Of a stretch of 64,000 bases of DNA, positions 2,771 to 56,900 are shown piece after piece. Source of the DNA: a virus (Duplodnaviria > Caudoviricetes); IMG/VR virus record IMGVR_UViG_3300042975_000096; one strand, 5' to 3'. The notes beneath the pieces were generated by a model. It ran no database searches, was not told the origin of the DNA, and saw only the letters and a list, made by a program, of their open reading frames with translations. Within the stretch, counting starts at the first letter, position 1. Each line of letters opens with the position of its first letter. The translations under genes were made by a program, and so were the position numbers.

Positions 2771-4472
2771 TTAAAGATTATCAATATCTATTTTGTCAGA
2801 ATTTGATTCAATAAATTGTCTTCTCGGCAAAACATTCTTTCCCATCAGCACTTCGAATGTATCAGCCACTTCTTTTGCTTCATCTAAATTAATGCGTTTC
2901 AATGTTCTTGTTTTTGGGTCTAATGTTGTTTCGCCTAGCTGTTCAGGATTCATCTCCCCAAGCCCTTTAAACCGGTTCAGTGTATATTTATCTTTTGCAT
3001 GTTTTTGACGATATTCCCGAAGTTCTGAATCATCCAACAAATATACAGAAGAATTGTCTGATTTAATAATTCTATACAATGGTGGTTGTGCTGAATATAC
3101 ACGACCAGATTCAATTAATCCAGGCAAATAATAATAAAACAATGTTAAAATTAAGCTTCTGATATGATTTCCATCAACATCCGCATCGGCCATAATGATA
3201 ATTTTATCGTATCTTACATCGTCTACGCTAAATGTTTTGCCAACACCACCGCCAATAGAAGCAACAATGCTTTTTACTGTATCTGAATTTAAGATTTTAC
3301 CAATATCGGCTTTATTAACATTTAGAATCTTACCTCTTAATGGCAAAATAGATTGATATGTTCTATCTCTTCCTTCTTTTGCCGAACCTCCAGCGCTATC
3401 GCCTTCAGTTAAGAATAATTCTCGATAACCGTTTTTATTACTACATTCTGCCAATTTTCCTGGCAAAGCAACTTTAGAAGCTTTTTTTGTCTGTCTACTA
3501 ATGCTTCTAGCTTTTCTTGCTGCTTCTTCAGCTTCTTTTACTTTTGAAGCTCTATTAATAATAGAATCAAATACATCGTACAGTTTTTTATTTTTAATCT
3601 CTTTATCAAAAAAATCATGCATGATTTTTTCAACTGCTTCTTGTGCTTCTTTATTTCCTAATTTTGTTTTTGTCTGTCCTTCAAATTCCGCTTCTGGAAT
3701 TTTAATGGATATAGTGCAATACATACCATCCATAAGATATTTCATTTCAATAGGGTCTTTAATTAATTTTTTATCAATTCCATATTGATTAATAATATCC
3801 TTATAAGCGTTTTTAAATCCTTGTAAATGAAAACCGCCCTCATATGTATTAACATTATTTGCAAATGATTTTATTTTTGTATTTGGTTCAGCTTCATCGT
3901 CATGAATAAATGCAATATCACATAAAATCAATTGACCATTAGGCAATTCATATTGTCCAAAAAATGAAAAAGGATTATCATATAACTTTATTTTTCCTTC
4001 AATCATTTTCATTGTATATCCAGTAATACCATCTTCAAAATGATAAACTGTATCTGTTTTATCCACATCGTTAATATATCTGATTTTAATTCCAGGATTT
4101 AATGATGCCAATTCTTTCAATCTGTTATTTACATGTTCACTAGGATTTAATGTGATTTTGAAAATAGATTTATCAGGATGGTATTTTATTTCCGTTCCCG
4201 TTTCTGTTGTTTTGCCAATTTGTTCAACATCAGAGGTAGGAACACCCCTAGAAAATGTTTGTTTATAAATTGCCCCATTACGTTTAACAACAACCTCAAA
4301 ATTATCCGCTAGTGCATTTACGCAAGTAACACCAACGCCGTGCAATCCACTCGAACAATTGCCAACAACAATATTATTAATGTTATACGTATGTGTATTT
4401 TTTACATTTAAATCATAGATTTTACCTTTGTATGCTTCTTTATTTATTTCTTTTACTCGGAATAAATTTCAA
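2771..4472 (-). CDS. gyrB: Split-intein C-fragment fused to the C-terminal part of DNA gyrase/topoisomerase IIA subunit B (apparent +1 frameshift near 4458)
   Basis: SGLHGVGVTCVNAL, EFEGQTKTKLGN, TOPRIM motifs TEGDSAGGS, PLRGKILN, MADADVDG, RFKGLGEM. The frame extends upstream of the tracked ORF through RVKEINKEAYKGKIYDLNVKNTHTYNINNIVVGN. The RBS (AGGGGG, 4481-4486) and TTG (4472) are one base out of frame. Confidence 0.9.
4358..4472 (-). other. Split intein C-terminal half (IntC, ~38 aa)
   Basis: Block F/G motif IYDLNVKNTHTYNINNIVVGN ending in Asn, followed by Cys+1 of the extein (CSSGLHGVG). Confidence 0.88.
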
Positions 4473-4498
4473 AATTAACGCCCCCTATTTACAAAATA

Positions 4499-5354
4499 TT
4501 ATATGGAATTACAAATTCTTTTTGCAATTTCTCTCATCGCTGGTTGAAAAACAGTTCTTCCTGCACGTTCATATAGTTTAGAATCAGATAAACCACAAGA
4601 TAAAATTTTGTCAATACTTTCATCTTCAATTCCTTGCAATCTAAAACATTCTCTAGGCGTTAATTTTCTCAATCTATTATTGTCAATAATCAGTGGCACG
4701 TTATTTCCACCGAGTACCCATAGAAGCTGTCAATGTTGGACAATATCCTTGAAATCTTCTAAAATTTCCACGTCTGTATTGATAGATACATATTTCGCTA
4801 TCATTTTTTGATATACTTTCGAGGATAGGAAATATTTTTCCGGTACGTTGTCCTCTAATATGTCCGACAATGAACACCCTTTCTCTGAGGACGGGATACC
4901 CAAAATTTTTTGCGTTGACACATTGCCATTCAACATCATACCCCAATTTGTCCAACTCCCAGAGTATTCGTTTAAAGCTTTCTCCGTTATCATGATTCAA
5001 TAACCCCTTTACATTTTCAAACCAAAACATCTTTGGCTTTTTTATTTTCAAAATCTTTGCCAATTCAAAAAACATTTGTCCTCTAGGGTCTTTTGAGGCA
5101 AATCCTTCTCTATCTCCTGCAATTGAAAACTTTGCACATGGAAAACCACCACATAACAAATCAATATCAGGAAGTGTATTGTAATCATAAGTTCGAATAT
5201 CTTTATCGTATGGCATTTCATTAAACAATGATTGATATATTGTCTGTGATGCAATTTCATAATCTGAACTGAATACACATTTCGTATCAAACTTTTCTAA
5301 TGCCAATCTAAATCCACCTATGCCACAAAACATATCTGCATATTTGATAGTCAT
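4499..5354 (-). CDS. C5-cytosine DNA methyltransferase-fold protein 1 (apparent +1 frameshift at ~4712; atypical motif X)
   Basis: Motifs I DMFCGIGG, IV GFPC, VI ENVKG, VIII RERVF. TLTASMGT joins GGNNVPLII-RKLTPRECFRLQG (IX) and LYERAGRTV (X) if one base is removed. Confidence 0.85.
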
Positions 5355-5406
5355 TATTATTTCCTCTTCTCATAAAATATTTACTATACTTTTTAGTATA
5401 TTAAAA

Positions 5407-5691
5407 TCATTTTGATGTATATTTTTTTGGTTTTCCATTTTCATCCAACACATTACCGCCAATAACATATGAGATTGAATATTTAGCATGTACTGCTGTG
5501 ACATAGTATTCATATTTCGTATTTTTATCAGCAACAATATAATAATCCTCTCCAAATTGTTCTACAAATATAAACTGTGATGAGTCATTACAAAAATCTT
5601 CACCAGTTTTTCTATTAACACTAGCGTTCCCTGTACATCCTGCCAATACAAGCGTACACACAATTAATACGATTGAAATGTATTTTTTCAT
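5407..5691 (-). CDS. Putative lipoprotein
   Basis: MKK + hydrophobic stretch + lipobox LAGC; RBS GAGGG. Confidence 0.75.
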   Translation of the reverse strand: MKKYISIVLIVCTLVLAGCTGNASVNRKTGEDFCNDSSQFIFVEQFGEDYYIVADKNTKYEYYVTAVHAKYSISYVIGGNVLDENGKPKKYTSK

Positions 5692-5703
5692 GATAACCCT
5701 CTT

Positions 5704-6627
5704 TTACAAATATTTTTCTACTTGTTTTGCCAAATTCTCTGCAAATAATGATGGTATTCCACTACAACGTTCATATTGTTTTGCTAATGGAATGTTTACA
5801 TCAAAGCAAAACGTATCAGGAACGCTCTGTATTCGTAAACATTCACGTACTGTAAATCTTCTAGGAGGATTTATTTGCGTTTTTCTTATATCGTAATTTG
5901 CTGGTGATGGGTATAACGGCAACTGTCTTGCACAAGAAACGATAGTAAATGATTGTTCATTCCATTGCCGTTGCCTGTTCCTAGAAATATATCTAGAAGA
6001 AAATCCACCATCATAATACTCATAATGATTAAAAGACTCATATTTTTTAGCAGGAATAGGTAAATCATGTATTGCATCATAAAGAGTTTTCTTTGGTAAT
6101 GTGTTAGGAAACTCAAAATTATCATTATGAATTCCAACAACAAAAACTCTTTTCCTGTCTTGTGGAATTCCATAATCAGATAGATTCATTAACTTGAATT
6201 TTACAATATATCCCATATTTTCAAATGATTGAATTAAAAAATTAAAAAACGCGCAATGTTTTTTACTAACCAATCCTGCAACATTTTCAATAACAAATGC
6301 TTTTGGTCTTTTATCATTAACAATACGCATAAACTGCAAACTTAAATCGCCATTCTTTTCATCATGTACTCCTTTTCCGCTTCCTGCAACACTAAATGGC
6401 TTACAAGGGAAACCTCCAATGATTACATCCGAATTAGGAATATCTGATGATTTTAACTTTCTTATATCTTTACACACAGCATTGAATTTAATATTTTTAA
6501 TATAAGTATCAACCGCATATTGATTATTATCAACTGCATAATTTATATCAAAAACATTTTTAAATCCCATTGCCCCTATACCTGCACCACAAAACAAATC
6601 TGTTACAGTATACATATTCTTAATCAT
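5704..6627 (-). CDS. C5-cytosine DNA methyltransferase-fold protein 2 (atypical motif X)
   Basis: DLFCGAG, GFPCKPFS, ENVAG, QDRKRVF, RRFTVRECLRIQSVPD. Motif X reads QYERCSGIP instead of QYxQIGNAVP. Confidence 0.9.
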   Translation of the reverse strand: MIKNMYTVTDLFCGAGIGAMGFKNVFDINYAVDNNQYAVDTYIKNIKFNAVCKDIRKLKSSDIPNSDVIIGGFPCKPFSVAGSGKGVHDEKNGDLSLQFMRIVNDKRPKAFVIENVAGLVSKKHCAFFNFLIQSFENMGYIVKFKLMNLSDYGIPQDRKRVFVVGIHNDNFEFPNTLPKKTLYDAIHDLPIPAKKYESFNHYEYYDGGFSSRYISRNRQRQWNEQSFTIVSCARQLPLYPSPANYDIRKTQINPPRRFTVRECLRIQSVPDTFCFDVNIPLAKQYERCSGIPSLFAENLAKQVEKYL

Positions 6628-7325
6628 CCTTTTATCGCAATATATCCTTCAAAATTCAACATACGCCAAAAAGTTTCAACCTTTGCAAACCCTGCTTGAT
6701 GCAATAATTCTTTATTCCATTCTGAAGTAACTGGAACCAAAACTCCAGCCAATGATTTTCTTTTTTCTTCAATTTGCTCTTTTGAATATCCATTTTCATT
6801 TTTTAATTGATAATAGCTATCTACTAACAAATTATTAATTGTATTACATGAACCTAAAACCTTTTCAACAAAAATAAAAATCCCATTTTTATTTAAAGAA
6901 TCATAAATGTTTTGTAAAATTTGCTGTCTATTTTCAATTGGTGTGAATTGAATTGTTAGCACAGACATAATAATATCAAAATTATTTGTACCAAAATCTT
7001 CTTCTAAAATGTCTCGATTCATGATTTTAATGTTATCTGCGTGTTCAAATCTTTTTTTTGCTTTTTCAATCATCGGTTCAGAAACATCAATTCCTAAACA
7101 TTGGTATTTATTGTTATTTTCAAATGGGATTAAGTTTAATCCATTTGAACATCCCAAATCCAAAACGTTTCCGCTTTTATGTTTACATAGCATTTGTATT
7201 GTTTTTCGCATAACATCATATTGTGGAATTGAACGTTGTAACATATCCTCAAAACAATCTGCTACTTGTTCGTCAAATTCCCACTTGCCATTAACGTGGA
7301 TTTTATCTTTTGCCATATTAATCAC
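6624..7325 (-). CDS. cmoA: CmoA-like carboxy-S-adenosylmethionine synthase (class I SAM-dependent fold)
   Basis: WEFDEQVADCFEDMLQRSIPQY, DLGCSNG, LTIQF and KRKSLAGVL...AGF...FWRMLNFEGYIAIK parallel E. coli CmoA ([41 protein letters not shown] including the Arg199 equivalent). Confidence 0.82.
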   Translation of the reverse strand: MINMAKDKIHVNGKWEFDEQVADCFEDMLQRSIPQYDVMRKTIQMLCKHKSGNVLDLGCSNGLNLIPFENNNKYQCLGIDVSEPMIEKAKKRFEHADNIKIMNRDILEEDFGTNNFDIIMSVLTIQFTPIENRQQILQNIYDSLNKNGIFIFVEKVLGSCNTINNLLVDSYYQLKNENGYSKEQIEEKRKSLAGVLVPVTSEWNKELLHQAGFAKVETFWRMLNFEGYIAIKG

Positions 7326-7693
7326 TAGCCTTTATATACATATAAAAATCTTCATCAACATTTTTAAAAAATAAATAACATTTCCTTTTATCGTTGAACG
7401 TATAATTAAAACTATCTTCTGTATATGGAGCATTAATGTTATTCGTCATCTTGCCAATTTTATCAAAGTTTTTTTCTACAAGAAAATTTTTAATATCATA
7501 ATCCATTGGCAAAAACAATGATAGATATTTCCCTTTTGAACATTTTCCAACGTCTGTATGTATTTCAAACTTTGTGCCCAACCATACTTTCATCACCATA
7601 TCTTACAATTTCTTCATCTTTAGATATAGCCAATTTATATACTGTATATCCATCGCCTTTTGTTGCTTGTTCAAATCCTTGTGATATTTTCAT
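7318..7693 (-). CDS. Hypothetical protein (either a 42-aa ORF plus a 93-aa ORF, or one ~124-aa ORF with a +1 frameshift near 7577)
   Basis: Strong RBS GAGGTG before ATG 7693 gives MKISQGFEQATKGDG..., which stops at ~7565; the tracked ORF 7318-7599 continues in the +1 frame. Confidence 0.5.
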
Positions 7694-7702
7694 AAATCCA
7701 CC

Positions 7703-8446
7703 TCAAAATTTCACTTTATCATAAATAGGAATTTCTTTTTTCAATTGTTCTACATCATCCGTATCTTCTAGTTCAATTAAAAAATCTTCTTTTTTGACAT
7801 TCTCTATTTTTTCCCAATATAATGTATCATTACGTTTAATTAATACATAGTGACCATTTATAGCAGACAGCTTTTTGTCATTTTTCAAAACAATTGAGTT
7901 AACATCACCGTCATAATCATATGAATATACCTCTGAAACTTCGTCAGATTCGTTGTAACAGTTTTTTACTCTGCACCCTACTACTACTTCACTTATTTTT
8001 TTAACGCCCTTAGAAGTGATTACAGGGCTGTTCTCGACGAAACACTTATAACCACTATCACCACCAAATTTACCACCGGCATGAAGTCTAGTAAGAATAC
8101 CTGTTAATGTATCTTGTGGTGAACCATCTTTGTTTTTCCATTCAGGATGTGTTCCAACAGGAATTCCGCGACCTTCATCTGTACTCGTTACCGTTCCATC
8201 TTTGTGAACATGAATGGTAATATTTTCGCCAAATCCTGCCGTATATTCGTCGATGGAATTATCAATAACTTCATAAACTAATTGGTCTATGCCTGATTGT
8301 GAGGTACTACCGATATACATACCTGGACGTTTTCTAACGGCTTCCAACCCATTCAATGATTTAATCTGGTTTACATCATAATCATTTTTCACTTTTAGCA
8401 TTTCTTGTTCTTTAGTCATTTTAATTTTATCCCCTCTCATCGTCAT
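7703..8446 (-). CDS. gyrB: N-terminal GHKL ATPase part of gyrase subunit B fused to split-intein N-fragment (likely start ATG 8419)
   Basis: LEAVRKRPGMYIGS, EVIDNSIDE, DEGRGIP, LHAGGKFG..YK, then an abrupt switch to intein block A. Confidence 0.92.
   Translation of the reverse strand: MTMRGDKIKMTKEQEMLKVKNDYDVNQIKSLNGLEAVRKRPGMYIGSTSQSGIDQLVYEVIDNSIDEYTAGFGENITIHVHKDGTVTSTDEGRGIPVGTHPEWKNKDGSPQDTLTGILTRLHAGGKFGGDSGYKCFVENSPVITSKGVKKISEVVVGCRVKNCYNESDEVSEVYSYDYDGDVNSIVLKNDKKLSAINGHYVLIKRNDTLYWEKIENVKKEDFLIELEDTDDVEQLKKEIPIYDKVKF
7706..8044 (-). other. Split intein N-terminal half (IntN, 113 aa)
   Basis: Starts with Cys1 block A CFVENSPVITSKGVKKISEV; block B-like AINGHYVLI; WEKIENVKKEDFLI; acidic tail; then a stop codon. 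Confidence 0.88.
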
Positions 8447-8471
8447 ATATATTCATTGTATTTATTTTATT

Positions 8472-8511
8472 AAAAAAAATAAAGGATGAAAATTATTCAC
8501 CCTTTATTTTT
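8472..8511 (-). terminator. Probable intrinsic terminator after the MFS gene
   Basis: AAATAAAGGaTGAA...TTCAcCCTTTATTT inverted repeat with A-tract. Confidence 0.55.
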
Positions 8512-8514
8512 CAA

Positions 8515-9745
8515 TTACTTATCTTCTTCTGTTTCGTATAACTGTTGACCTTTATCCTTAAGTACCCATGCAATAATTAAATTAAATACAAATATTGCAG
8601 AAAATAGATACATAATTAATTGATAAGAACCAAACACTGATTTTGTAAACGTAAGCAAAAGTGGACCAGCAATTCCTGCAAATCCCCAAGCTGTTAAAAT
8701 TCTACCATGAATTGTTGACAAATGTCGCGTTCCAAAAATATCACTAAGATATGCTGGCATACATGAAAATCCACCACCATAGCATGTAATAATCATCAAA
8801 ACAAACAATTCAAACAAAAACTCGTTCGTTGTCGTTGCCAACAAGAAGAACATTACAATTTCAAGTACAAAGAATGTAACATATGTATATCCACGACCAA
8901 TATAATCAGAAATTGTAGCCCAAACAATACGACCGAAGACCATTAAGCAATCCGACAATACCAACTAAAGCCGCTGCTCTTGTTGGCGAAAAACCAACAA
9001 CCTCTTGTGCCATAGGTGAAACAACAGATAACAATGCAATACCACAAGAAATATTTATGAAAAAAATAATCCACAACGCTTTAAACTGCCATGTACTATA
9101 AACTTCTTTTGGTGGAATATCCTCTCCAATAAAATCTTCTGCTTCATTGTATCCTTTTGGTGGAGCTAAATATAATGATGACAATGCCATAATAATCATG
9201 TAGGCAAATCCCAAAATCAAGAAATTGCTAACCAATCCATATGTAGAAGATAAAAACTGCATTAAAGGAGCAGCAATCAATGCAGCAAATCCAAATGACA
9301 TGATTGAAATTCCTGTTGCAAAACCTCTATTTTCAGGAAAATATTTAACCAGTGTAGATACAGGAGTTATATAGCCCAATCCCAATCCACAACCGCCAAT
9401 AACACCATAGAACAAATACAACAAAAATAAACTATGTAGAGATAATGCCAATGAAGTTCCAAACAATCCCAACCCAAAAAAGGCAGAAGCCAATAAACCA
9501 ACTTTTTTTGCACCCCACTTATCAACTAGATTCCCAAAAAATCCTGCTGATAATCCAAGGAATAAAATTGCCAATGAAAATGCAAATGTTGTTTGTGATA
9601 AAGACCATCCATTCTCAGCAATAATTGGATTTACCAAAACGCTCCATGCATATACGCTACCAATCGAAATATGGATTCCACCAGCTGCTAATGCAATCAA
9701 CCATCGATTCCTTTGTAGTTTTGAAAATACTTTTTTCATAACCAT
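8515..9745 (-). CDS. MFS transporter, oxalate/formate antiporter (OFA)-like family (apparent +1 frameshift at ~8935)
   Basis: NRWLIALAAGGIHISIGSVYAWSV, GLGLGYITPVSTLVKYFPENRGFATG, GRIVWATISDYIGR, YGGGFSCMPAYLSDIFG. The two tracked ORFs join as NGLGRIVW if one C is removed. Confidence 0.88.
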
Positions 9746-41198: not shown

Positions 41199-44100
41199 TT
41201 ATACATTCTTAATATTTACGAGATTAACATCACATTTTATTGATTCTAAAAATGCTTTTATCTTTGCTGCCATTTCTTCACTTGATTTCCCTTTTTTCAA
41301 TTGTCCTGTTATTGCCATTGCAGCAGTACGCTCACCTTTTTGCATTTGTTCTAATTTTTGCTTCTGCAATTCTCGCATAGACATTTCCATTGTATCTTGT
41401 TGGCTTTTCAAATTAGCTTTCGTCGCATCCTCTACTTGTTTTAACGACCTCTTTGCAGCATCATCTGTTGCCTTTTGTGCACTTTCATGATATTTAGAAA
41501 TATATGTTTCATTTTTCGGTTTTTGTGCATCCATTGCTTCATAACGTTTGCGTATTTCATCTATAGATTCAAATTTACTACCAATATCCACATACATTCC
41601 ATCCACAATTCTTCCTTGCCCTGTTTTACCACTAGAAACACCCATAGATTGCAATGCATTCGCAAAACGTTTCGCGTTATCTTCTGCCTGTTCTGATAAT
41701 GTTTTTGGCTTAAAATTCTTCAGCAAACCGCTTAAATCACCTGAACCAAATGCGCCTAAATTAACACCCCTATTTTTTAATTGTGCCAAAACGCTTTCAA
41801 ACGTTGCCAAATACTTTGATTCCAGTGTTGTAAAATATCCATTTTGTGCCAAAATATGAACAAATGCAGCTGCATCGCCTCTATTTGCTGCTGCTGCCAA
41901 TGCTTGTCTATCTTTAGCATAAGCAATAGAATGGTCTGCCATAAAATTAGCAGCCTCTTCCAGGCTATTAAACGTAGCATAACCACCGTCACCTGCATTA
42001 CCATAATTGTATCCTGGTTTATGTTGATTAAGCATACCCCATCCTGATTCAGATATTAACTGTGCCAAAATATAATCAGCTCTAACACCAGTTTTTGCAG
42101 AAACAATTTTACAATATTGAACCATTTCAGAATCTTGTGGTAAATCACCCATCAAATTATCTGTAGGCGTTGTTGAAGGGGAAGAATTATCTGGACCATA
42201 TCCTGTAGGAACATCCCCATTCATATAACCTAAAGCTCTATTTAAATAATGGCTTGTTGTAACCGAATCAGCAGCTTCATATATATCACTACCATTTTCT
42301 CTTGCTGCTTCAACAGCATTATCAACAGCCCCTTCACCTGCATTATAAGCTGCTATTGCTAATCGATAATCGCCATTATATTTATCTAAAAGGTCTCTAA
42401 ACATTGTTGCTCCAAGATTAATGTTTTCAGAAGTATTCATGTTGAGGACTTCAGGATGCCATTGAGGATTTATTTGCATAAACCCATATCCACCTACATC
42501 ATAACCACCATCATTATCATAATCATGTAACCCTAATATTTGACCACTATGCTCACTTAATGCTATCGCAGCAAATGCATTTGCACTAATTCCATGTGCA
42601 TTTGCAATATATTCAAGTTCATTAGCCGCTTCAGGACTTTGACTTTGAACTAATGCTAAAGCACTTCCTCCACCGCTACCATCACCAGACCCACCCCTAC
42701 TAGGGTCTTCCTGATATGCTTCTTGTTGCGCTTCTTCTTCAAGTCGTTCTCTTGTTTCTCTTTTTAATATGTCTTCCCAAGAACCATTTTCGCCACCACT
42801 TGTAAGCACTTCTGACCAATTACTCATTATTTTACCAGCAACTGCATTTTCATCTGTTCCACTACCAAACGTTAAACCTGCCAATTCATCATTTAGTGGT
42901 TGCAAATCACCCTGTTTACATCTTGCATAACTGGCAATCTGTTCCATTTCATGTTGTTCTTTTTTTAATTGCTTATATTTATTATAATTATCGGCATCAC
43001 TTATATCAGGTTCTCCATCAAATTCTTCTAATTGATTTGTAACTTTGTTATAATGTTCTTGAGCAGCTTTTTCAATACCTGCATAATATTCAACTGGACT
43101 ATCTGGATTAAATATTGTATTAAATTTAGTTTCAACACTTTCTTTCTCTTGTTCATTCAGTTGTACATTTTTATATGGCTTGTTCCCTCTACGATTTCTA
43201 TTTGCCAGTGCAGCTCTTCTTTTATACTCTGCAAACGCTTGCTGTGCTGTTGCTAAAAGAACCGCCAACGATACGTGAGCTTTTGTAAAATCGTCCATCA
43301 TTTGTTTGAATATTCTTTTTTCAGAAGCGTTAAGAGAATCATAATCAATTCCATTTTCTGCTAAGAATTGTTTGATTGCACGTCCTTGTTCTGTATCGGA
43401 CTTTATCAAATCAATCATTGAATGCCCATACATATCTGTATCTGCATTCAAAGTTTTTAAAAATTCCATATTTGCAGCAGAAACCTTATTACCGATTCCC
43501 AACAGCTCTTTTAATTTATCTCCACCCTTAGAAGCAAAACTACTTGCTGCCATTCCTGCAATTGGAGCTACATATTTTCCAACAACAGGTATTCTAGATG
43601 CTGCTCCACTAGCTAATGCATATGCACCGCCCTCTACTGCCGTATCAACACCAACTCTTGCAACGTGTTCATACCACGGTCTAGTTTCACCATTTGAAAA
43701 TTCGTTTAATGCAGAAAACAAACCTGTCATTGCAAATGTTCCTCTATTGTCTTTCAAGAACCCTTTTATCCTATTAAACACTTTCATTCCAATAGATTGT
43801 GACCTTGCTTTTAATTCAGCTTGTTTTTTCACTAATTGTTTTGTTTCTTTATCATATTTCATCTTTTCTCCCATCAATGCATGGGCTTTTGCTAAATTAC
43901 GATTCCTTTTTTTATCATTGTTTTTTTCTAATTCTTTTACTTCTTTTTCTATTGCTTCAGATACTTTTTTGTTTTTACTAAATCCTCTTGTTACGGCAAC
44001 CGTAGCCAAACCTAATGTCCCATAATACAAATAATTGCTGAATCCTGTAGAAGCTACATAATCTCTTATTTTATTATCTTGATGCAAATCTACAGGACTA

Positions 44101-47100
44101 CCATCTTTATTAACAAACTGCATTTTAGCCGTTCCTGAATCAAACATATCAGCCATAGTTTGTACATACGTTTCATCTGATTCCCCTGCACCAAGTTCAG
44201 CAGCTTCACTTTTTCCTGAATTTGCAAGAGTAGCACCACCAATCAACGCAAGTAATCCTAATTTTCCTTTTTTTCCTTTGAATATGTTAGGGATTTTACC
44301 AAATAATTTTGAAGCCTTGTTTTTTAGTCCACTGAAAAAACCACCTGTTTTTGACTTTGCTTTTTCAGCGACTTCCTCAACTTCATCAACTGTTTTATTT
44401 GATACATTTGTTTTTTTATTCCACCAATTTTTAATTCCACGTTTTGCACCATGTAAAGCTAATGCACCTAAACCAAAAGCCCCTGCACCCATAGCTAATG
44501 TTTTCCATGGATTATGTGCTGCCCATAACAATGCACTATGAACAATAGGACTCTTTGATAACTCGCCAAGGAATTTTATTATTTTTGTAATTCCTTTAGC
44601 CATCGCATCGATTATCTTTTTCATTTTATTTGCTAAATCATCCATTTGTTTCTTATATTTTGTATTAATTAATTCAGCTAATTTATTCGCTTCTAATACT
44701 CGCGTTGCTTTTATCTTTTGCATTTCAGATAATTGTTTTCCTGCTTTTGCAAGCGAGTCCTCAAAACCTTTTAATCCTTTTTCAACGTTTTCACTTTTAT
44801 GAAGTTCTTCTTCATCCATTCCTGCTAAATATTTTCCTGCTCCCTCTGTATCGCCATTGGAGAGTTTTGATGTTAAGACGGATGCATTTTTTTGTGTCAT
44901 TCCATCTCCCATCATGCTTTGCATCATGACAAAATTACTTATTCCGTCAGATACCCCAAGACCGCTATTTAGCATATTATATTTCATGTTTAGGCGTTCG
45001 CCCATCATTTTATATCTATTTTTAAACGGGTCTCCGTTTTCATCAGCAACCATTAATGCGCTTCCCATAGCTGCCCACATGCTACCTGTTTGCCCAGCCA
45101 TTACCGCATAATATGCATTTGTTTTATTTTTGCTAAAATTAGTTTGTACTGTTGCAATATTTGTTGTAAGATTTACCGCATCTTCAACACGCATTCCATC
45201 ATCAACCATACTTGAAACCATATTAATAGCAAGATTTCCACCAAATCCCATGTTACGCAATGTATCCGTTAAACGAGAAACCTGTTTCATATATTTTTCT
45301 ACAGGAACTTGTGCCTTTTGTGCATCTGCCATAACGGTATAAATCGTAGTCGTTGCGGTTTCTGCATCTGAACGATTATTTTTGTACCAAGTATTTAATG
45401 CTTCTGCCATCGTTCCATTACTTATGCCATACAAATTTGCAGGAGCAAATAAAGTATGAGTAAAATAATTTAAATCTCGTGCATTTGCATTTGGGTTTGA
45501 ATTATAAGAACCACCAACTTGTTTAGCTAAATCTCTGTACATTTTTGATGGTTCATCAAAATCAACCATTCCATAAGTCATGGCATAATATTTATTACCC
45601 ATATTGTATGTCAAATCTCTTGCTCCACTTGCGCCATTTGCGCCAATAGAATAATTCGACATATAATTATTGTATAATGATTGACCGTTTTTCTTATAAC
45701 GGTCTTTTACAATATCTAAAAAACTCGTAGCAGAAAAAAGACCACCCATGCCAAGCATTGCCAATCCTTTTCCTATTACTCCCCAAACACTAGATACATC
45801 TTTAAATAATTCTTTATAGAAACTTACTTCTTTATTATTAATTGCCTCATCTAAATCATCACGTTCGTTTTCTAATTTTTCTAATTGTTCTTTTAATGCA
45901 GATACAACTTTTGAATCAGGGTCTATTAATGACTGTGCATTTATTGCCTTTACTGTATCATCAATTGCTGTTTCAATCGTTTTTCTGACTTCAGAAGCTG
46001 TTTTTTTATCTTGTTTGTTTGAAAAATGTTTTAAACCAAGTTTACTTACATTATCTGCGACATCAATAACTGCATTATTTGTTCTCATTTGATTATTAAT
46101 CAAAAGTTGACTGTTTTGAGCCAGTATATTACTCTTACTAAAATGTTTCCCACTTGCCATATCAACTGAGTTTTGAACAGTGTCATGCGCTTGACTTGCA
46201 TAAGAATATACTCTATCTAGATTATCAACGCTATCGCTAAAACTATCTGAAAACAACGAATTACTATTTCGTCTAGACATATTTAATTCATTAAGCATAG
46301 CTGTTGCACTATGATTAAATCCCATTGAAGCTAATTCACGACCAGCCATTTCTGTCGTTATTTGAGAATTACTATCAACGTTTTTAAATTCACTAACTAA
46401 TGAAGTTAATTCTTGTTGCGCTGATTTTTTATAATTCTCGTGTATATGCCTAATTGCATCAGCCATAGAATCTTCAGATAAGCTAAAATCATAAGTCTGA
46501 CCTAATACATCTGATACTTCATTTATTAACGGTTTTACTACTGTTAATTCTTTTTGAATCTTATCAACTCTAGAAAAAACCTCATTGAATTTTTCAAAAT
46601 CAAAATCTTGTGTACTTTTAGAAAAACCCATGATTGTTTGCTGTGCAAGTTCATGTACTTGTTTTAAGTTCTCTAAATATCCAGATATATTTCCTTGTTG
46701 CCGATTATTTTTTATATTATTTTTTACTTCTTCAATTTTACCAACAATAGTTAATGCATCAATATTTGGTGTATCACCTGTCATTTGCAACAACATTGTA
46801 TTTGATTTAGCAATGTTATCATATAAGTGACTCATTGTTTGCGAAATTGAAGTCAAAATACGTGAATCAGTTTTATTAACAATATTTTGGTCATTAATAA
46901 TATTTGATTCAATTTTAGTTTTATTAATTGTTTCCGCAGAATTTAATAAAGCACTTCTTATTTTCTTCGTATTGTCAATAAGTCGTACTAAAGAATCCCC
47001 TGCTTGCGAATAATTATTATGTATATCATTCAAAACTTTCAAATCAAACATTTTAGATAAGCTATTTAAAAGTTTTTCTGAATCCCCTGATAATTTATTA

Positions 47101-47468
47101 TTATTTTCATTAATCATACTCATGGAATTCTTAACGACTTCCATAACAGCTTTTTGCAATTTAACATTTACTTTCTGTAAAGACCCATAACTTGCTGTCT
47201 TTGTTCCATCGCCAAAAGACTGATATGTTTCAATTGCAGATTCAATATTTTGCAATTGTTGTTTGATATTTAAATATTTATTAATAACATTTCTGTTTGT
47301 GTCGGAAGTCCTTAAAGAAATTATTGTTTGATTAACTGAATTTAACAACGAAGCAACATTACTCAGTCCTTCAGACACATTCTTTAATCCATCATCACTT
47401 TTTATATTTTGTTGTATTATAGAAATTATTGATTCTTTTGTATCTGTAGCCATTTCACATTTCTCCAT
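41199..47468 (-). CDS. Tape-measure-like protein 1 with lytic transglycosylase (SLT) and GH73 glucosaminidase-like domains
   Basis: 2089 aa, largely helical; SEHSG...GFMQINP...AIAAYNAGEGAV (SLT); ILAQLISESGWG...NYGN...FNSLEEA...GYFT (GH73-like). Confidence 0.82.
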   Translation of the reverse strand: MEKCEMATDTKESIISIIQQNIKSDDGLKNVSEGLSNVASLLNSVNQTIISLRTSDTNRNVINKYLNIKQQLQNIESAIETYQSFGDGTKTASYGSLQKVNVKLQKAVMEVVKNSMSMINENNNKLSGDSEKLLNSLSKMFDLKVLNDIHNNYSQAGDSLVRLIDNTKKIRSALLNSAETINKTKIESNIINDQNIVNKTDSRILTSISQTMSHLYDNIAKSNTMLLQMTGDTPNIDALTIVGKIEEVKNNIKNNRQQGNISGYLENLKQVHELAQQTIMGFSKSTQDFDFEKFNEVFSRVDKIQKELTVVKPLINEVSDVLGQTYDFSLSEDSMADAIRHIHENYKKSAQQELTSLVSEFKNVDSNSQITTEMAGRELASMGFNHSATAMLNELNMSRRNSNSLFSDSFSDSVDNLDRVYSYASQAHDTVQNSVDMASGKHFSKSNILAQNSQLLINNQMRTNNAVIDVADNVSKLGLKHFSNKQDKKTASEVRKTIETAIDDTVKAINAQSLIDPDSKVVSALKEQLEKLENERDDLDEAINNKEVSFYKELFKDVSSVWGVIGKGLAMLGMGGLFSATSFLDIVKDRYKKNGQSLYNNYMSNYSIGANGASGARDLTYNMGNKYYAMTYGMVDFDEPSKMYRDLAKQVGGSYNSNPNANARDLNYFTHTLFAPANLYGISNGTMAEALNTWYKNNRSDAETATTTIYTVMADAQKAQVPVEKYMKQVSRLTDTLRNMGFGGNLAINMVSSMVDDGMRVEDAVNLTTNIATVQTNFSKNKTNAYYAVMAGQTGSMWAAMGSALMVADENGDPFKNRYKMMGERLNMKYNMLNSGLGVSDGISNFVMMQSMMGDGMTQKNASVLTSKLSNGDTEGAGKYLAGMDEEELHKSENVEKGLKGFEDSLAKAGKQLSEMQKIKATRVLEANKLAELINTKYKKQMDDLANKMKKIIDAMAKGITKIIKFLGELSKSPIVHSALLWAAHNPWKTLAMGAGAFGLGALALHGAKRGIKNWWNKKTNVSNKTVDEVEEVAEKAKSKTGGFFSGLKNKASKLFGKIPNIFKGKKGKLGLLALIGGATLANSGKSEAAELGAGESDETYVQTMADMFDSGTAKMQFVNKDGSPVDLHQDNKIRDYVASTGFSNYLYYGTLGLATVAVTRGFSKNKKVSEAIEKEVKELEKNNDKKRNRNLAKAHALMGEKMKYDKETKQLVKKQAELKARSQSIGMKVFNRIKGFLKDNRGTFAMTGLFSALNEFSNGETRPWYEHVARVGVDTAVEGGAYALASGAASRIPVVGKYVAPIAGMAASSFASKGGDKLKELLGIGNKVSAANMEFLKTLNADTDMYGHSMIDLIKSDTEQGRAIKQFLAENGIDYDSLNASEKRIFKQMMDDFTKAHVSLAVLLATAQQAFAEYKRRAALANRNRRGNKPYKNVQLNEQEKESVETKFNTIFNPDSPVEYYAGIEKAAQEHYNKVTNQLEEFDGEPDISDADNYNKYKQLKKEQHEMEQIASYARCKQGDLQPLNDELAGLTFGSGTDENAVAGKIMSNWSEVLTSGGENGSWEDILKRETRERLEEEAQQEAYQEDPSRGGSGDGSGGGSALALVQSQSPEAANELEYIANAHGISANAFAAIALSEHSGQILGLHDYDNDGGYDVGGYGFMQINPQWHPEVLNMNTSENINLGATMFRDLLDKYNGDYRLAIAAYNAGEGAVDNAVEAARENGSDIYEAADSVTTSHYLNRALGYMNGDVPTGYGPDNSSPSTTPTDNLMGDLPQDSEMVQYCKIVSAKTGVRADYILAQLISESGWGMLNQHKPGYNYGNAGDGGYATFNSLEEAANFMADHSIAYAKDRQALAAAANRGDAAAFVHILAQNGYFTTLESKYLATFESVLAQLKNRGVNLGAFGSGDLSGLLKNFKPKTLSEQAEDNAKRFANALQSMGVSSGKTGQGRIVDGMYVDIGSKFESIDEIRKRYEAMDAQKPKNETYISKYHESAQKATDDAAKRSLKQVEDATKANLKSQQDTMEMSMRELQKQKLEQMQKGERTAAMAITGQLKKGKSSEEMAAKIKAFLESIKCDVNLVNIKNV

Positions 47469-47469
47469 T

Positions 47470-47505
47470 AAAAAAAATTACATCTATTAAAAAAATAGAT
47501 GTAAT
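47470..47505 (-). terminator. Probable intrinsic terminator
   Basis: ATTACATCTATT...AATAGATGTAAT with A-tract. Confidence 0.6.
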
Positions 47506-47525
47506 CATTAAAACTATGAGCATTG

Positions 47526-47963
47526 TTATGCATCAATTGAAGCATTTTTACTTGCTGTTTCTTTTTTCGTTGTCTTTTTGTCAAGATTTTTGAGTTCGTC
47601 ATCTTTCTTCTGACGAATAACCTCAAATTCTCTATACAAGTCATTAACAATCGTTGGATTAACTCCATTAAACAAAATTTCCTTTTCTGCTTCGCCAATT
47701 TCTTGACCATCAATTGTTATAAGTGCTCTTTCAAGAATTTCAATCTGCATCTTATACATACGAGTAATTTCATCACGATAATCTGGACCTGAACTGTTTT
47801 TCAGAGCACTCAAATATTCCTCAGAGGAAATTAATTTGAATCCCCACGTTTTACCATAACGAACTACGTCTTCAGTATCTTGTCCAATATTTACTAAGTC
47901 CTCAATCATTTGAGACACAAGTTTATTTGTTTTAGCTGGCATTTTATCACCGGCTCCTTTCAC
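47526..47963 (-). CDS. Putative tail assembly chaperone (short paralogue)
   Basis: WGFKL...ALITID...IVNDLYREF, similar to the N-terminus of 60185-61159. Confidence 0.6.
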   Translation of the reverse strand: MKGAGDKMPAKTNKLVSQMIEDLVNIGQDTEDVVRYGKTWGFKLISSEEYLSALKNSSGPDYRDEITRMYKMQIEILERALITIDGQEIGEAEKEILFNGVNPTIVNDLYREFEVIRQKKDDELKNLDKKTTKKETASKNASIDA

Positions 47964-48029
47964 AATAATTGTTTATTTCTTTCTGCTACATAGGAAATAT
48001 ATTATACTCAACAAAAAATAATAGTATGT

Positions 48030-51000
48030 TTATTTATAATTAACATTTGTTGCAATTAACGGATTGTCCATATATTCCCTTGCAATTTCATCTACTTTTT
48101 TCAAAATATCTCTAAACACCCAATTCTTTTTTACAATTTCTTCTGGATGTTGTGTCAATTCTTCATTTACTCTTTTTTCTATTGATTTCAGGTTTGCCTT
48201 TGCTGTTTCATTTCCTTTTTCAACCGTTCCGCTTTTTATTGCAGTTTGTATTTTTTTATTAGAAGCATCAATTTCTTTTTTTATAGAATCTATAGATTCA
48301 AATTTACTTCCAATATCTACATACATCCCATTAACAATTCTTCCTTGTGCGGTTTTACCGTTAGACACACCCATAGACTCTAACGCTTTATTAAATCTTT
48401 TTGAATTATCTTCAACTTGTTCTGATAATGATTTCGGTTTGAATTTAGATATATCTAATTTTGGTGCTTTAACATTCGGGAATGGGTTGGACGTGCTTCC
48501 ATCTCCACCACCACGACCATCTGCTCCTGTAAGTAAATATTTATTAGGTGTATATCTTGCTGGTCCGCCTAATCCATCACTAGAATAAAAACTGACATCC
48601 AAATGCAAACTATCCTCTACTCCTGCTGCACCTCCATGTTGAGCAATTAATTGTTCCAATAAATCCTCTTCGTCTGCCGACATATCACGTGCAATATCCA
48701 CTTTTGCGCCAGAACCATGGCTTCCAGGATTTGTTCCATTATGGTGATACCAATGTATACCATCAGGTTTTAGTGTCTCTGCACCACCCGTGATTGTTAT
48801 TTTATGACCAGTTTTTTCATAAAATTCTTTTGCAACCGCATTCATTGCTGCTGCAACTTTAGGATTGACGTGAACCAAATCAGTAGCACCAGGTATGCTT
48901 TCTGATTTTTCCATATAAGTCATGTCAAATCCACCCTCGCCATTACCTAAATAATCACCAGAAGCTCCAGGAAGACTTGTATTTCCAGCTGCTTGTATTT
49001 CTTTGACTTTTTCTTCTATCTCTTCACTACCAACTGTGTTCCAATACGACTCATATTCTTTATTGTAATGTTGTTCAGCTTCCCATTCCATAAATTTTTG
49101 AAATTCCCATGATTCTGAACCACCTATTGTTGCAGAATCAAATCTATTACCATTATCACCTTGAAAAGATGCTTTCCATCTTCCCCATTCTCCATTCATA
49201 AAATTATAATACGCTTTATCACCATCATCATCTGAATTAGCCATTTCATGAAATTGATTTGCTCTATCAGTAAACCAACTTTCATCATTAGTATGATAAT
49301 AATAATTCGCAATATCACCAAATAATCTACTTGCATTACCTGACAAATCTCCTGAACGTCTTTGATACCAACTTCCTTTCGTTTTATCATCAGCTTTCCA
49401 TTGCTCTTGAACTTCGCCAAATATTGTATATTTAGAAGTATCATCTAAAGTCATTGTTCCATCTGCTGCTTTTACTAATTTTGCATTTGATAAATCTTTA
49501 CCATTAGTTGTTCTTAAATTAGCACAAGCATTTCTAATATTAGCTAATGATTGCGCTGCTGCATTTAATGCTTGCGCCATATCGCCATAAATGCCCATGA
49601 ATTCTATAACTTTATCTTCCCAAATCTTCTTTTCATATTCACTAAGTTCGCCCATATTCACTCCATGCGTAGCCAAACTGGTTTGAACATAACGTTTAAA
49701 ATCAGAATTAGACAACCCCAAATATGATGCTAGATTTTCCATTATTTCTTGTTGTTTTTCGATTTCCACGTCCGACATATTCCCTTTAATAATTTTTGCC
49801 TGTCGTGCTAACGATTCATCATCTTCGGTATTACCAAAAAACTTATTAATTCCTATATTTGCTCCGGTCATTGCTAAAGAACTACCAATAAACGGTATAG
49901 CAGAACGTAATCCTTTTGCTATTAACCCTCCACCAGGAACTCTACTCATAAGACCTGTCAATACCACGTCTGCTAGTGTACCTGCACCTGCTTCAGCAAC
50001 ATCTGTTCCAATTCTCCTGCCCCAACTTTGATTGGGGTCTCCAAACAACATATCTTGTCCAACAGCAAGTGCTAAATTACCGCCAAAACCTTTTATATGA
50101 TTTTTAATTTGCTGGCGTTTTGACATTTTTTTGTACTTTTCAAATTCAGCATCATATCTCTTTAAATCTTCTTTAAATTTATTCTCACTGTTATGGTATT
50201 TTTCAACTTCTCTTTCATATTGTTTTTTACTTGTTTCAAATTCCTTATTCGCTTGAACCAATTTATCATAAGCAGCTTTTTGCTTTCTATATTTTGAGCT
50301 GCTTTTTGCATTTTTCTTTGATGGCGCATTTCCTGGAGATGGTGGTTTTTGTTTATCAAAAATAGGTTTTTTTTCATTAAAAACAGGTTTTGTAGGCACG
50401 GACAATGATTTTGATTTACAAAAATGTTTATAAATTTTATATAGTCCCATAGGTAATCCTAACATTGTTGCGCATATAAAAATTTTATCTTCCAAAGAAG
50501 CATTATTTCTATCTTGAGGTGAACTTGTTACAATTTGCACCTTTGCTTTTCCTGTTTCAAACAAATATGAAATTTTACCCCACCATAAATTATCATTATT
50601 TTTATTTTCTTCTTCTCCAGGAGCTACTTGTGGTGAAGCAAATGCCGTTGATGCACCAACAACTCCCATTGCTAATGCTGATAAACCTATTACGCCAACG
50701 CTTTTTGCGCCACCTGCAATAGAAGAAGGATGTCTAATTGTATTAGCTGAACTTTTTAACACATAGCCTAATCCTTTTTTTGCTGCCACTCCTGCCATAA
50801 CAACACCTGCTGTTGTTTTTATTGGGTCTTCTGCAAATGTATTTAGTATTGATTTGCCAAATGGCGAATTCAAAAATCCACCAATCATTTTAATAACTTC
50901 AACCATAGATTTTGCATATTTATCTATTTTTAATCCCAACCATTTAGCAAAATGATTTAGTTGGCTTCCTAATTGAGTATCTAAAATGTTAGCAATACTA

Positions 51001-53894: not shown

Positions 53895-53914
53895 TTACAA
53901 ACCCTCCATATATT

Positions 53915-56900
53915 TTATCTATTTGCAAGCTGTGAATTAATTGCAAGTATTGCACTTATCACATCTTTTGAAGTCTTTTGTGTCGCAGCTTTTACAGAAT
54001 TAACCTGTTTATTAATATCTTCTAATTGTTTCTTTACTTTATCTCCACTATTATCAACAGCAGTTATTTCAATTTTAACCTTTTCTTGATTTTCAGCCTT
54101 ATTTTCTTCTGTGGCTTTATCTTGTGCTTCTTGAATCTTGCGCTGATTTTCCTTATATGCTGCATTATTTTGATTATTAATTGCATCTTTTTCTGCTTGC
54201 GCCTTATCGTTTGCAGCTAACAATGTTTGGTCTGCGTTTTTATATGCATGATATGTAGGTGGTTTTGGTTCATATTTTGCATCAAGAACTTTATTCATTT
54301 CAAGCGGACCAGTACTTGCCTTTCCATCTTTATTTAATGCAACCTTACCATCACCCGTAAATGCACCGTTTAATCCATATCCATATCTATCAAAATCTTT
54401 TTCTCCAGAATTCATACGGAAATTTTTACGAACACCTGCTAATGTTAAACTTTTTCCATTAGCTGATAATGCAGTTGTTCCATCAATAATTAACTGACCT
54501 GTTGCCACTTTATCTTTTAACAATTCTGCATTACTTAATCCACCACCCATTTTACCAAGTTGTGTTAATAATGCATCTCTACCTTTCATTGCATTATTCA
54601 ATGCTTCTTCAGGCGTTTGCGCCGTATTACTCCCAACACCATCTCCTGCACCTGGAGTATAATTATCAGGCACATCTCCACTAGCTCCAACTTTAGATGC
54701 ATCACCATATGCTAACCATCCTGATGGGTCAAAATCCTCTTTTACAACTCCATAATCTTTACCTTTTGCATGAATAACCTTACCATTACCTGCATAAATA
54801 GCACTATGACCAACACCATTATCTCCGGGATAAGAACCTTTACTAAACAATATATCTCCAGGTTTAATATTGGAAAAATTAGTTGATAATGCTCCGGCGT
54901 TTTTCATTTGGTCATATTGGTCATCTGCCTGTCTAACCAAAGATACACCACCAGCAGCATATGAAGCTTGAGTTAATCCACTACAATCATAAGCATTTGG
55001 TCCAGTTCCTCCGAGAAGATATTCTTTTCCGATTGCTGATGTTGCAAAATCTACAATTTTTTGTCTTTGATTTTCTTTATTATTTGTAGGTGGTGGGGTT
55101 GCATTATATTTTTTACGTATAGCTTCTGCATCATCTGTTTTACCATTTCCTGAACCATCGCCAGTTTCATTTGCTTTATTTTGCAATGCTCGCGCTGTTG
55201 CCCATTTTTTTCTATCTTCTAATCCTAATCCATATTGTTTTCCCCAGTCACCATCAATTGCTTCAGAAGAAAATTTAGCGAAATCTTTTGCCCTATTATC
55301 ATCACGTAAATGTTGGAATGCCGTGCCTGAATCGCCATATTCAGACACATATTTGGTTCCTCGTTCCCTGTCATATTCCTGCAACATTTGATATTCGTCT
55401 CTACCTAAATTTCTTTGACTTAATGGTATATCTTCATTATTTCTTTGTCGATATTGCTCATCATAAACCATAAATCTATCTGAAATTGGGCTACCATCTT
55501 TAAAATTATCACCCTGTTCATCATCATAAACATGATTCCAATAATAACTACCATTTTGTGCAGTATTATAAATAATTGGGGCATGTTCATTATCAGAATC
55601 ACCGTATTCAGTCATTACATAATCTAAATATTGTGCGTGTGTATCACCATCATTTTCAGCAGCATATGTACCATCATTTTTAGCTTTATCTGTTGCTGCT
55701 GAAGTCTGCTGACCTGCCAAGAAACTTGCAACCAAATCACTCAATCCCATGGATTTCAACTGATTAAAGATATTATCCATGTATTGTTGTTGGTCTTTAG
55801 TTAATCCATCTAACTTCATTCCATGCTCACGCAATGCTCTATCTGCCGATTTAGCTCTATCATCATTAGAATTTACTAAACTATTTGAATTTTGTGTATA
55901 TTTTTCTTTTGCACCATCAACTGTTTGCGTATATCTATCATGTTCTCGTTTAATACCATCATCATCAGATATACCAAACATTTTTTTTGCTTGATTTGCT
56001 AACCATTGACCTCCAGCAGAACCCGCTGCTCCACCTAATACTGTTCCTGCTGGTCCAACTGCGGAACCAGCAGCAGCGCCTAACAAGCCACCACCAACAG
56101 TTCCAATCATATCTAATGCGCCACGAGCAAATCTTTCGCCACCAGTAAATCTATCAGGATGTTGATAATAATCATATATCTCTGAACCTGCCGAAATCAA
56201 TCCTCCAACCGCAGGTGCACCGTATCTAAGCATTTTACTACTGTTTTTACCAAAAGTAGATAAATCACCTAACATTCTTGATTCTTGATTCTGTTGTGCT
56301 TTACTATTTTCTCTATTGCTACGATTAGCATAATTAGCACCAACCGTTGCCAATCCAAATGCACTTGCAGTTGCAACCAAACCATTATCAGACATAAAGC
56401 CACTTTTTTTACCATCACTGTCTTTATCTCCAGGCAAATCTATTGTTGGTGAGTTAATCTTATTTATGATTTGTTGTTCTAAAATGCTATTGTTTTTATC
56501 TACATCACCTGTATTCGGAATATCCGCATTCGGAGAACCATTGTCAGGTGGAGTTTGGTCATCATCACCACCACGATTACCCCCATAACTAGTATGAGAA
56601 TCATCAGCCCAATCTTTATCTTGTTTATCAAACTCACTAGGTTTATTATCTTTCTGACGTTTTTCCCATTCATTCATAAACCCTGAATAATTACTCATAT
56701 ATTGAGATGATGCTTGTTCACCATTTACAGTTTGAGTTTTTGCAGTACCACTAGAAAACATTTGATATAGCTTATATGCACCATAGGCAACACCGCCCAT
56801 AGCTGCCATTCCCAATGTTAATGGCAATGCTTTTCCTAAAAACCCTGCCGCTGCTCCAACTCTACCTTTACCACCAGATGGTAAATGCGTTGCTGCGTTA

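Follow-up and report, generated by a model that had tools for sequence, protein, structure and literature searches.

Does a phage gene cluster in which a cmoA homologue runs directly into a gene for an enzyme of the cytosine-C5 methyltransferase (C5-MTase) fold, with a second such gene shortly beyond, encode a system for writing 5-carboxymethylcytosine (5cxmC) into DNA, and if so, are both of the C5-MTase-fold enzymes writers? The cluster is in the IMG/VR virus record IMGVR_UViG_3300042975_000096, a 64-kb stretch of DNA that we refer to as the window, and all of its genes are on the minus strand. The precedent is Synechococcus phage S-B43, in which CmoA makes carboxy-S-adenosylmethionine (Cx-SAM), the C5-MTase homologue CmoX (SpCmoX) makes 5cxmC at GC sites, and CmoY ligates glycine onto the 5cxmC (Yang et al., Nat Commun 2025, PMC12783734). 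In structure 8YF3, CmoX has Arg350 where HhaI has Asn304, and this Arg contacts the carboxymethyl group; an R350N mutant is dead with both cofactors, and a signature of 'SPPC' plus R350 was used to catalogue 5,615 candidates (PMC12783734). The initial annotation of the window, made from its sequence, proposed that the phage supplies its own Cx-SAM and writes 5cxmC, and pointed to a related cyanophage system; the proposal matches CmoA-CmoX of S-B43, and comparative genomics backs it for both enzymes. We put at roughly 75% the probability that the window carries a two-writer cassette for cytosine carboxymethylation, of the same kind as CmoA-CmoX. The system itself is of a published kind and is not new; the novelty is in a lineage of Arg-less, HaeIII-like putative writers with a counted linkage to CmoA and CmoY, and in its pairing with an Arg-type writer within the gap of a split intein. 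The genes central to the question, read 5' to 3', are as follows.

7316..6624, minus strand: cmoA homologue, predicted carboxy-SAM synthase, 230 aa (ATG at 7316; the reading frame is open from a GTG at 7325)
6627..5704, minus strand: MTase A, HaeIII-like enzyme of the C5-MTase fold, 307 aa (PF00145, E 1e-66)
5354..4499, minus strand: MTase B, whole span, in two reading frames in the window
4701..5354, minus strand: first part of MTase B, 217 codons with motifs I-VIII, including GGFPCA (TIGR00675, E 2e-61)
4712, minus strand: extra C breaking MTase B (ACTCGGTGG vs ACTGGTGG)
4499..4699, minus strand: second part of MTase B, 66 aa in the +1 frame with motifs IX-X, including YERAGRTV

The first of these genes very probably encodes an enzyme that makes Cx-SAM. 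The best family match of its product is CmoA (TIGR00740, E 4e-50), with the next family at E 6e-14, and it matches the CmoA structures 1im8 (E 3e-36) and 4gek (E 1e-30). The KR motif reported in the initial annotation is present within EEKRKS, which aligns to SQKRSM of 4gek such that the equivalent of E. coli Arg199 is kept (Arg213 in the 4gek chain, after a 14-residue tag); Arg199 forms a salt bridge with the cofactor carboxylate (PMC3663124). The protein is 48% identical to CmoA of Erwinia phage Y3 and 29% identical to the biochemically proven SpCmoA, which differs in having KEKELR where the window protein is of the E. coli-like KR type. The overlap of cmoA with a C5-MTase gene was also read correctly at the outset, the start of MTase A overlapping the cmoA stop by 4 nt (ATGA), so that, as in S-B43, a phage CmoA homologue adjoins an enzyme of the C5-MTase fold.

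By sequence alignment, MTase B carries the substitution known from SpCmoX. The catalytic Cys, the ENV Glu and the motif VIII Arg of the C5-MTase fold are all present (motifs GGFPCA, FENV, LRERVF and YERAGRTV; PF00145, E about 1e-66). Alignment of YERAGRTV to ykqfGNsv of HhaI and yrqfGNsv of Shigella Dcm places an Arg, encoded by the AGA codon at 4558..4556, at the HhaI N304 position, and alignment to TERVGRMV of SpCmoX places it at R350. These alignments agree with the Asn-to-Arg change proposed initially for this codon, and the PC and ENV motifs described at the same time are found in both enzymes (GGFPCA and FENV here, GGFPCK and IENV in MTase A). MTase B thus has GR instead of the canonical motif X Gly-Asn (GN), and PCA instead of PCQ. 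The local motif ERxGR is shared with SpCmoX (TERVGR), and both MTase A and MTase B resemble SpCmoX in having lost the Gln after the catalytic Cys; however, neither has the published SPPC, both reading GGFPC. In its motif X, MTase B is also similar to M.MpeI N374K, an engineered carboxymethyltransferase cited in PMC12783734 and reportedly described by the Kohli laboratory in 2021, in which the same Asn is changed to a basic residue, although MTase B is natural, differs in its target and is accompanied by a cofactor supply of its own, and MTase A does not follow the M.MpeI logic at all.

Among the 120 best homologues of MTase B, PCA (or PCC/PCF) always occurs with YER[AC]GR, and PCQ always with GN. 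Loci were fetched from IMG/VR with an alignment of the clade, and in these 80 loci a CmoA homologue lies within 5 kb, and usually abuts, at 49 of 52 ERxGR-type genes, the remaining three ending at a contig edge; the corresponding count for the GN-type relatives is 0 of 27. Homologues that are 68% identical to MTase B lie directly behind CmoA in three phage contigs of 55-92 kb (L071-L073), as does a 67%-identical one in a 281-kb IMG/VR contig (L074). An AlphaFold2 model of intact MTase B (predicted local distance difference test score, pLDDT, 88) has M.HhaI as its nearest match (Z 32, root-mean-square deviation, rmsd, 2.2 Å), compared with Z 23.7 for 8YF3, and in a tree the MTase B clade is monophyletic (97/96), nested among GN-type enzymes and apart from SpCmoX. 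Judged by motif and phylogeny, MTase B is a CmoX-type enzyme of another lineage than SpCmoX, although we do not press an independent origin of the clade because SpCmoX sits on a long branch. There is a strong likelihood that the intact enzyme carboxymethylates cytosine.

MTase A presents a different picture. It too has the catalytic Cys of motif IV, the ENV Glu and the motif VIII Arg (motifs GGFPCK, IENV, QDRKRVF and QYERCSGIPS), and its best match is M.HaeIII (GGCC, PDB 1DCT), with 38% identity (E 3.5e-48), the same fold, and an alignment that runs through the target-recognition region (SRNRQRQWNE..F against SRNRVRQWNE..F). The AlphaFold2 model (pLDDT 91.5) has 1dct as its top PDB match (Z 38.5, rmsd 1.7 Å, 298 residues aligned), compared with Z 28.4 for 8YF3, such that MTase A, like MTase B, is nearer to canonical enzymes than to SpCmoX. 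Because fold and recognition region match M.HaeIII, the target of MTase A is probably GGCC or a close variant. The differences from M.HaeIII lie in motif I (FCGAGIGA vs FSGAGGLD), in the coupling of the gene to cmoA, and above all in motif X, where MTase A reads YERC-SGIP against YKMIGNAVP and so is one residue shorter and has Ser or Gly at the Asn/Arg position (SG in place of GN), with PCK in place of the canonical PCQ. The initial annotation described this motif X as rewired; the Asn is indeed missing, but this is a clade-wide state without Arg, and the published Asn-to-Arg logic does not explain it. All 120 of the best MTase A homologues, including records from Paenibacillus, Bacillus and Vibrio, read [YH]xRCSG[IV]P or a near variant. 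Likewise, the replacement of PCQ by PCA and PCK that had been pointed out is real, although it does not serve as a special mark, YERCSGIP and the change after PC being features of whole clades. The residue after the catalytic Cys varies in the MTase A clade (Q 39, T 32, K 7, and also S, N and A, among the 120 homologues) and is therefore an unlikely determinant; for the same reason we set aside the PCK Lys as a clade-level carboxylate binder, although K-type (PCK) members often adjoin CmoA.

The genomic neighbourhoods point to Cx-SAM as the cofactor of the A type as well. A single-protein query with MTase A against viral contigs returned no related loci, and an alignment query was used instead. 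A CmoA homologue is present at 22 of the 23 loci with an A-type enzyme, mostly directly upstream, compared with none of about 35 loci with GN-type enzymes from the same scans. Co-occurrence of cmoA with an Asn-less motif X, which had been suggested as a check on the initial proposal, thus holds for the A and B types alike, and over both sets GN-type enzymes adjoin CmoA at 0 of about 62 loci; the Cx-SAM reading is backed for both enzymes because both clades nearly always adjoin CmoA and GN relatives never do. At five of the A-type loci (L011, L012, L013, L016 and L024) a homologue of the CmoY ligase lies between or beside CmoA and the A-type enzyme, an arrangement that would make little sense if the A-type enzyme did not provide a carboxyl handle, which such a ligase would need. 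In the closest relatives, L004 and L005 (MTase A 89% and CmoA 83% identical), cmoA and the A-type gene stand alone at the same intein site, and we consider these two genes the conserved core because they are all that L004 and L005 carry between the intein halves. As to how the cofactor might be held, R287 (of YER) is the only invariant basic residue peculiar to the MTase A clade; an Arg at the equivalent position is found also in SpCmoX and in the B clade, and canonical enzymes have Q, M or C there. R287 is perhaps a carboxylate binder of MTase A. It is likely, though with less assurance than for MTase B, that MTase A carboxymethylates cytosine.

Several observations weigh against the two-writer reading. 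The phage is uncultured and the case is built on sequence comparison, and MTase A is without the sole residue experimentally shown to bind the carboxylate, no Arg being present at the R350/HhaI N304 position either in MTase A or across its clade; because SpCmoX R350N is dead with both cofactors, MTase A would need another solution for Cx-SAM. About 40% of the clade keep the canonical PCQ, and one A-type locus, L009, which is of bacterial-looking context, has no nearby CmoA. The missing Arg, the retained Gln and the member without CmoA would fit an ordinary SAM-dependent GGCC methyltransferase that makes 5-methylcytosine, with a drifted motif X, and that shares an anti-restriction cassette with cmoA on regulatory and not chemical grounds, such that just the MTase B type uses Cx-SAM. 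M.HaeIII is, after all, the top match in both sequence and structure, and GGCC, the most depleted palindrome of the window after GATC, is depleted yet present (11 sites vs 28.5 expected), as in ordinary restriction evasion. However, in L004/L005, as at most of the 22 loci with CmoA, no C5-MTase homologue other than the A-type enzyme accompanies CmoA, and CmoA would have no user there if the A type were plain; it takes the place of CmoX in cassettes with CmoA and the CmoY-like ligase; the Asn is lost throughout the clade; and the GN-type relatives, as counted above, do not adjoin CmoA. We regard a plain methyltransferase as improbable.

The score of the cmoA product belongs among the same reservations: at 170.6 bits it is under the curated equivalog cut-off of TIGR00740 (193.3, NCBIfam). 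It could be that cmoA has another use, in draining or diverting host SAM as a counter-defence, in tRNA modification or in a small-molecule pathway, with both MTases methylating from SAM. Depletion of SAM by CmoA was raised as a possibility by Yang et al. (PMC12783734), and tblastn with three CmoY-type ligases found no CmoY-like ligase in the 64-kb window, a difference from S-B43, nor in the flanks of the closest relatives. Such a use is nonetheless very improbable, as CmoA shows a tight and specific linkage to C5-MTase clades that lack the Asn and is not present beside those that bear it, cmoA and MTase A share the ATGA overlap, and the substitution in MTase B is the very one that gives SpCmoX its specificity for Cx-SAM. 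CmoB, which was sought within the window alone and with no systematic test for it or for a restriction enzyme, was not seen, a likeness to S-B43 within that limit.

If both enzymes are writers, one cmoA serves two of them, a further difference from S-B43. A-type and B-type enzymes occur together in the window and its twins alone among about 150 loci examined, in agreement with the initial annotation, which had placed the novelty in the two-writer form and the location; at L015, L017 and L026 the partner of the A type is of a third type, reading CNGMTVP. On balance, we lean slightly towards a broader proposal, that the RCSG[IV]P clade would constitute a second, independently recruited family of natural cytosine carboxymethyltransferases, binding Cx-SAM without the published Arg and perhaps through the YER Arg, widespread in phages and prophages of the Bacillota and missed by the SPPC plus R350 signature, and that here it stands beside an Arg-type CmoX, with one cmoA and the same mark at two motifs.

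Two further kinds of C5-MTase homologue were encountered near CmoA in these searches. In a Bacillus genome (L060:6237-7277) and an Aneurinibacillus plasmid (L061:6220-7299), the CmoA and A-type pair is followed by a degenerate C5-MTase paralogue without the catalytic Cys (SPPSN) and without the ENV Glu, which by its motifs may be an inactive reader or partner. In Staphylococcus phage vB-SscS-F1 (L002:6491-7498), a cassette of CmoA, CmoY-like ligase and MTase includes an enzyme that keeps PCQ and has VVGGVI as its motif X (Asn to Gly), which from its sequence is a further Arg-less state adjoining CmoA.

The location of the cassette is intein-embedded, as first described; it lies between the N-terminal part of gyrB with the N-intein half and the C-intein half with the remainder of gyrB, another difference from S-B43. 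The split intein fractures gyrB, and about 3.2 kb of cargo, comprising a 124-aa open reading frame (ORF), cmoA, MTase A, a lipoprotein gene and MTase B, lies between the halves in place of a homing endonuclease. The other features of the locus are these.

8446..7703, minus strand: N-terminal part of gyrB and N-intein half (HATPase_c and Intein_splicing; same arrangement in L004/L005)
7318..7693, minus strand: homologue of the 124-aa protein found ahead of cmoA in relatives (the L004 gene at 8925-9299 matches in two frames by tblastn)
5407..5691, minus strand: predicted lipoprotein, 94 aa, signal peptide ending LAGC, between MTase A and MTase B
4730..4993, minus strand: 87-aa ORF in the +1 frame inside MTase B (no Pfam family)
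about 4470..2771, minus strand: C-intein half and C-terminal part of gyrB (DNA_gyraseB, Toprim, GyrB_C), start broken by an extra G

In L004 and L005 a shorter cargo occupies the same intein site, and there is a second intein break further along gyrB, with ORFs of 138 aa and 55 aa between the pieces. The second C5-MTase had been placed two genes downstream of the first; it is downstream, with just one gene, that for the lipoprotein, in between. The lipoprotein is found solely in the near-identical metagenome twins L068/L069 and is absent from L004 and L005, and the lipoprotein and MTase B are an addition present solely in this phage and those near-identical twins. The 124-aa ORF homologue matches no Pfam family. 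No other CmoA locus fetched has a homologue of the 124-aa ORF or of the lipoprotein, so neither is a conserved partner. A scan of 4200-8700 for promoters and terminators found sites no commoner than in shuffled sequence.

The reading of MTase B as a single gene in the initial annotation missed a frameshift in the window, caused by the extra C at 4712, and an intact 284-aa allele is found in other contigs. In the window the first frame ends in CPTLTASMGTRWK and a stop at 4701, and the remainder continues in the +1 frame; P0121, a 284-aa protein from ENA metagenomes, is 100% identical to the first part and reads on through TASMGTGGNNVPLII. Three ENA contigs (L068-L070) that are 99.4% identical to the window, with the same order of MTase A, lipoprotein, MTase B and C-intein, have neither the C at 4712 nor an extra G near 4457 (4458); in the window this G ruins the beginning of the C-intein/gyrB-C gene, and the twins, which lack it, read LKFIPVKEINKEAYKGKIYDLNVKNTHTYNINNIVVGNCS. 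Comparison with L004 reveals the same +1 breaks in three more genes, near 7577, 8935 and 15250, and the five insertions within 11 kb therefore break the C-intein/gyrB-C gene, MTase B, the 124-aa ORF, the MFS transporter and a 256-aa protein. We also compared public contigs of four runs (X1, X3, X7 and X8) over 4300-9000. X3, X7 and X8, from three other studies of sludge or wastewater, have no extra base at 4458, 4712 or 8935; X1, the probable source sample (depth 13), keeps all three; and at 7574-7577 the contigs of all four runs, X1 among them, are one base shorter than the window.

These breaks could mean that the cassette is decaying in this genome, with MTase B, the C-terminal half of gyrB and the neighbouring genes being real pseudogenes. 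The dense packing of five 1-nt insertions in 11 kb and the recurrence of those at 4458, 4712 and 8935 in the Logan contig of X1 speak for this, and the MTase B of this particular strain, frameshifted in the window as in X1, may really be dead, which adds to the reservations listed above. X1 is not independent evidence, however, because it may be the very data from which the window was built, and the insertions are missing from the three runs of other studies and from the three ENA contigs. Moreover, all five are at YTGG/CCAR next to GG/CC with the same direction of shift, a shared context that looks like systematic error and not independent mutation, and one of them would abolish the C-terminal half of gyrB. 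Decay is unlikely, and error in the source data is the most likely origin of the five breaks. We rejected the idea that CCAG, as a modified motif, had been miscalled wholesale as CCGAG, because CCAG/CTGG is not depleted (174 vs 164 expected) and there are only 8 CCGAG/CTCGG sites. Given the intact single-ORF alleles in L068-L070, X3, X7 and X8, MTase B is treated as intact in the natural population. Those alleles also led us to reject a natural two-subunit MTase B, with the second part starting from a GTG at 4699 behind GGTGG; the alpha/beta annotation of phage MM1, considered as a parallel, is nested and uninformative.

Inside MTase B, overlapping motifs VI-VIII, is the 87-aa ORF, which contains SGSWTNWGMMLNG and SEKGCSLSDILEDNVPEKYFLS. 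The same frame is open in the L071 and L074 homologues described above, where about half of its residues are identical, and 528 library proteins match the ORF at E <= 1e-3 (best E 1e-16); Pfam and PDB sequence searches gave no match. In some of the matching proteins, such as P0256 and P0272, a recognition region and motifs IX-X share a reading frame with the module, and the N-termini of proteins of this type look like +1-frame readings of motif IV. C5-MTases made of two polypeptides are known in M.AquI and M.EcoHK31I, which the P0256 and P0272 type of protein resembles by analogy.

From the observed gene identities, motif states and linkage statistics we infer a scheme that covers the cofactor used, the product formed, the sites targeted and the part played by R287. 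The CmoA homologue would convert SAM and host prephenate to Cx-SAM. In MTase B the catalytic Cys (PCA) would attack C6 of cytosine and the carboxymethyl group would pass to C5, with the Arg in place of the motif X Asn holding the carboxylate of the cofactor. MTase A, which would be translationally coupled to cmoA, is predicted to catalyse the same transfer at another site, probably GGCC or a sequence close to it, as a member of a separate lineage with a shortened motif X and with R287 as its candidate carboxylate binder. As no CmoY-type ligase is present in the 64-kb window, the product may remain 5cxmC, and the DNA would thereby be guarded from host restriction.

The window is part of a large low-GC myophage (tail sheath, baseplate, DnaB, topoisomerase II large subunit) that about 15 studies have recovered in metagenomes of bioreactor sludge and wastewater. 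Restriction-site avoidance is strong, with no GATC sites against about 153 expected from trinucleotide frequencies, and with CTGCAG and GGATCC also absent. Just upstream of the gyrB-N/cmoA cassette, at 8518-9745 on the minus strand, is an MFS_1 transporter gene, whose product is 409 aa in relatives and which is split here by an insertion; that it might help to provide CmoA with prephenate or shikimate is pure speculation. Four long ORFs lie in the tail region (41199-60163, minus strand), three of them about 1950-2090 aa in length and the fourth 1762 aa.

Natural 5cxmC was described in December 2025, and neither enzyme of this cassette carries the full SPPC plus R350 signature used for the published census. 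If the Arg-less clade is active, the mark would be commoner than that census suggests, including in prophages of Bacillus and Paenibacillus, there would be a second structural answer to the recognition of Cx-SAM, and enzymes of GGCC-type specificity could be put to use for tagging DNA with carboxyl groups at specific sites. The two-writer cassette would, for its part, be a natural case of one cofactor supply serving two specificities.

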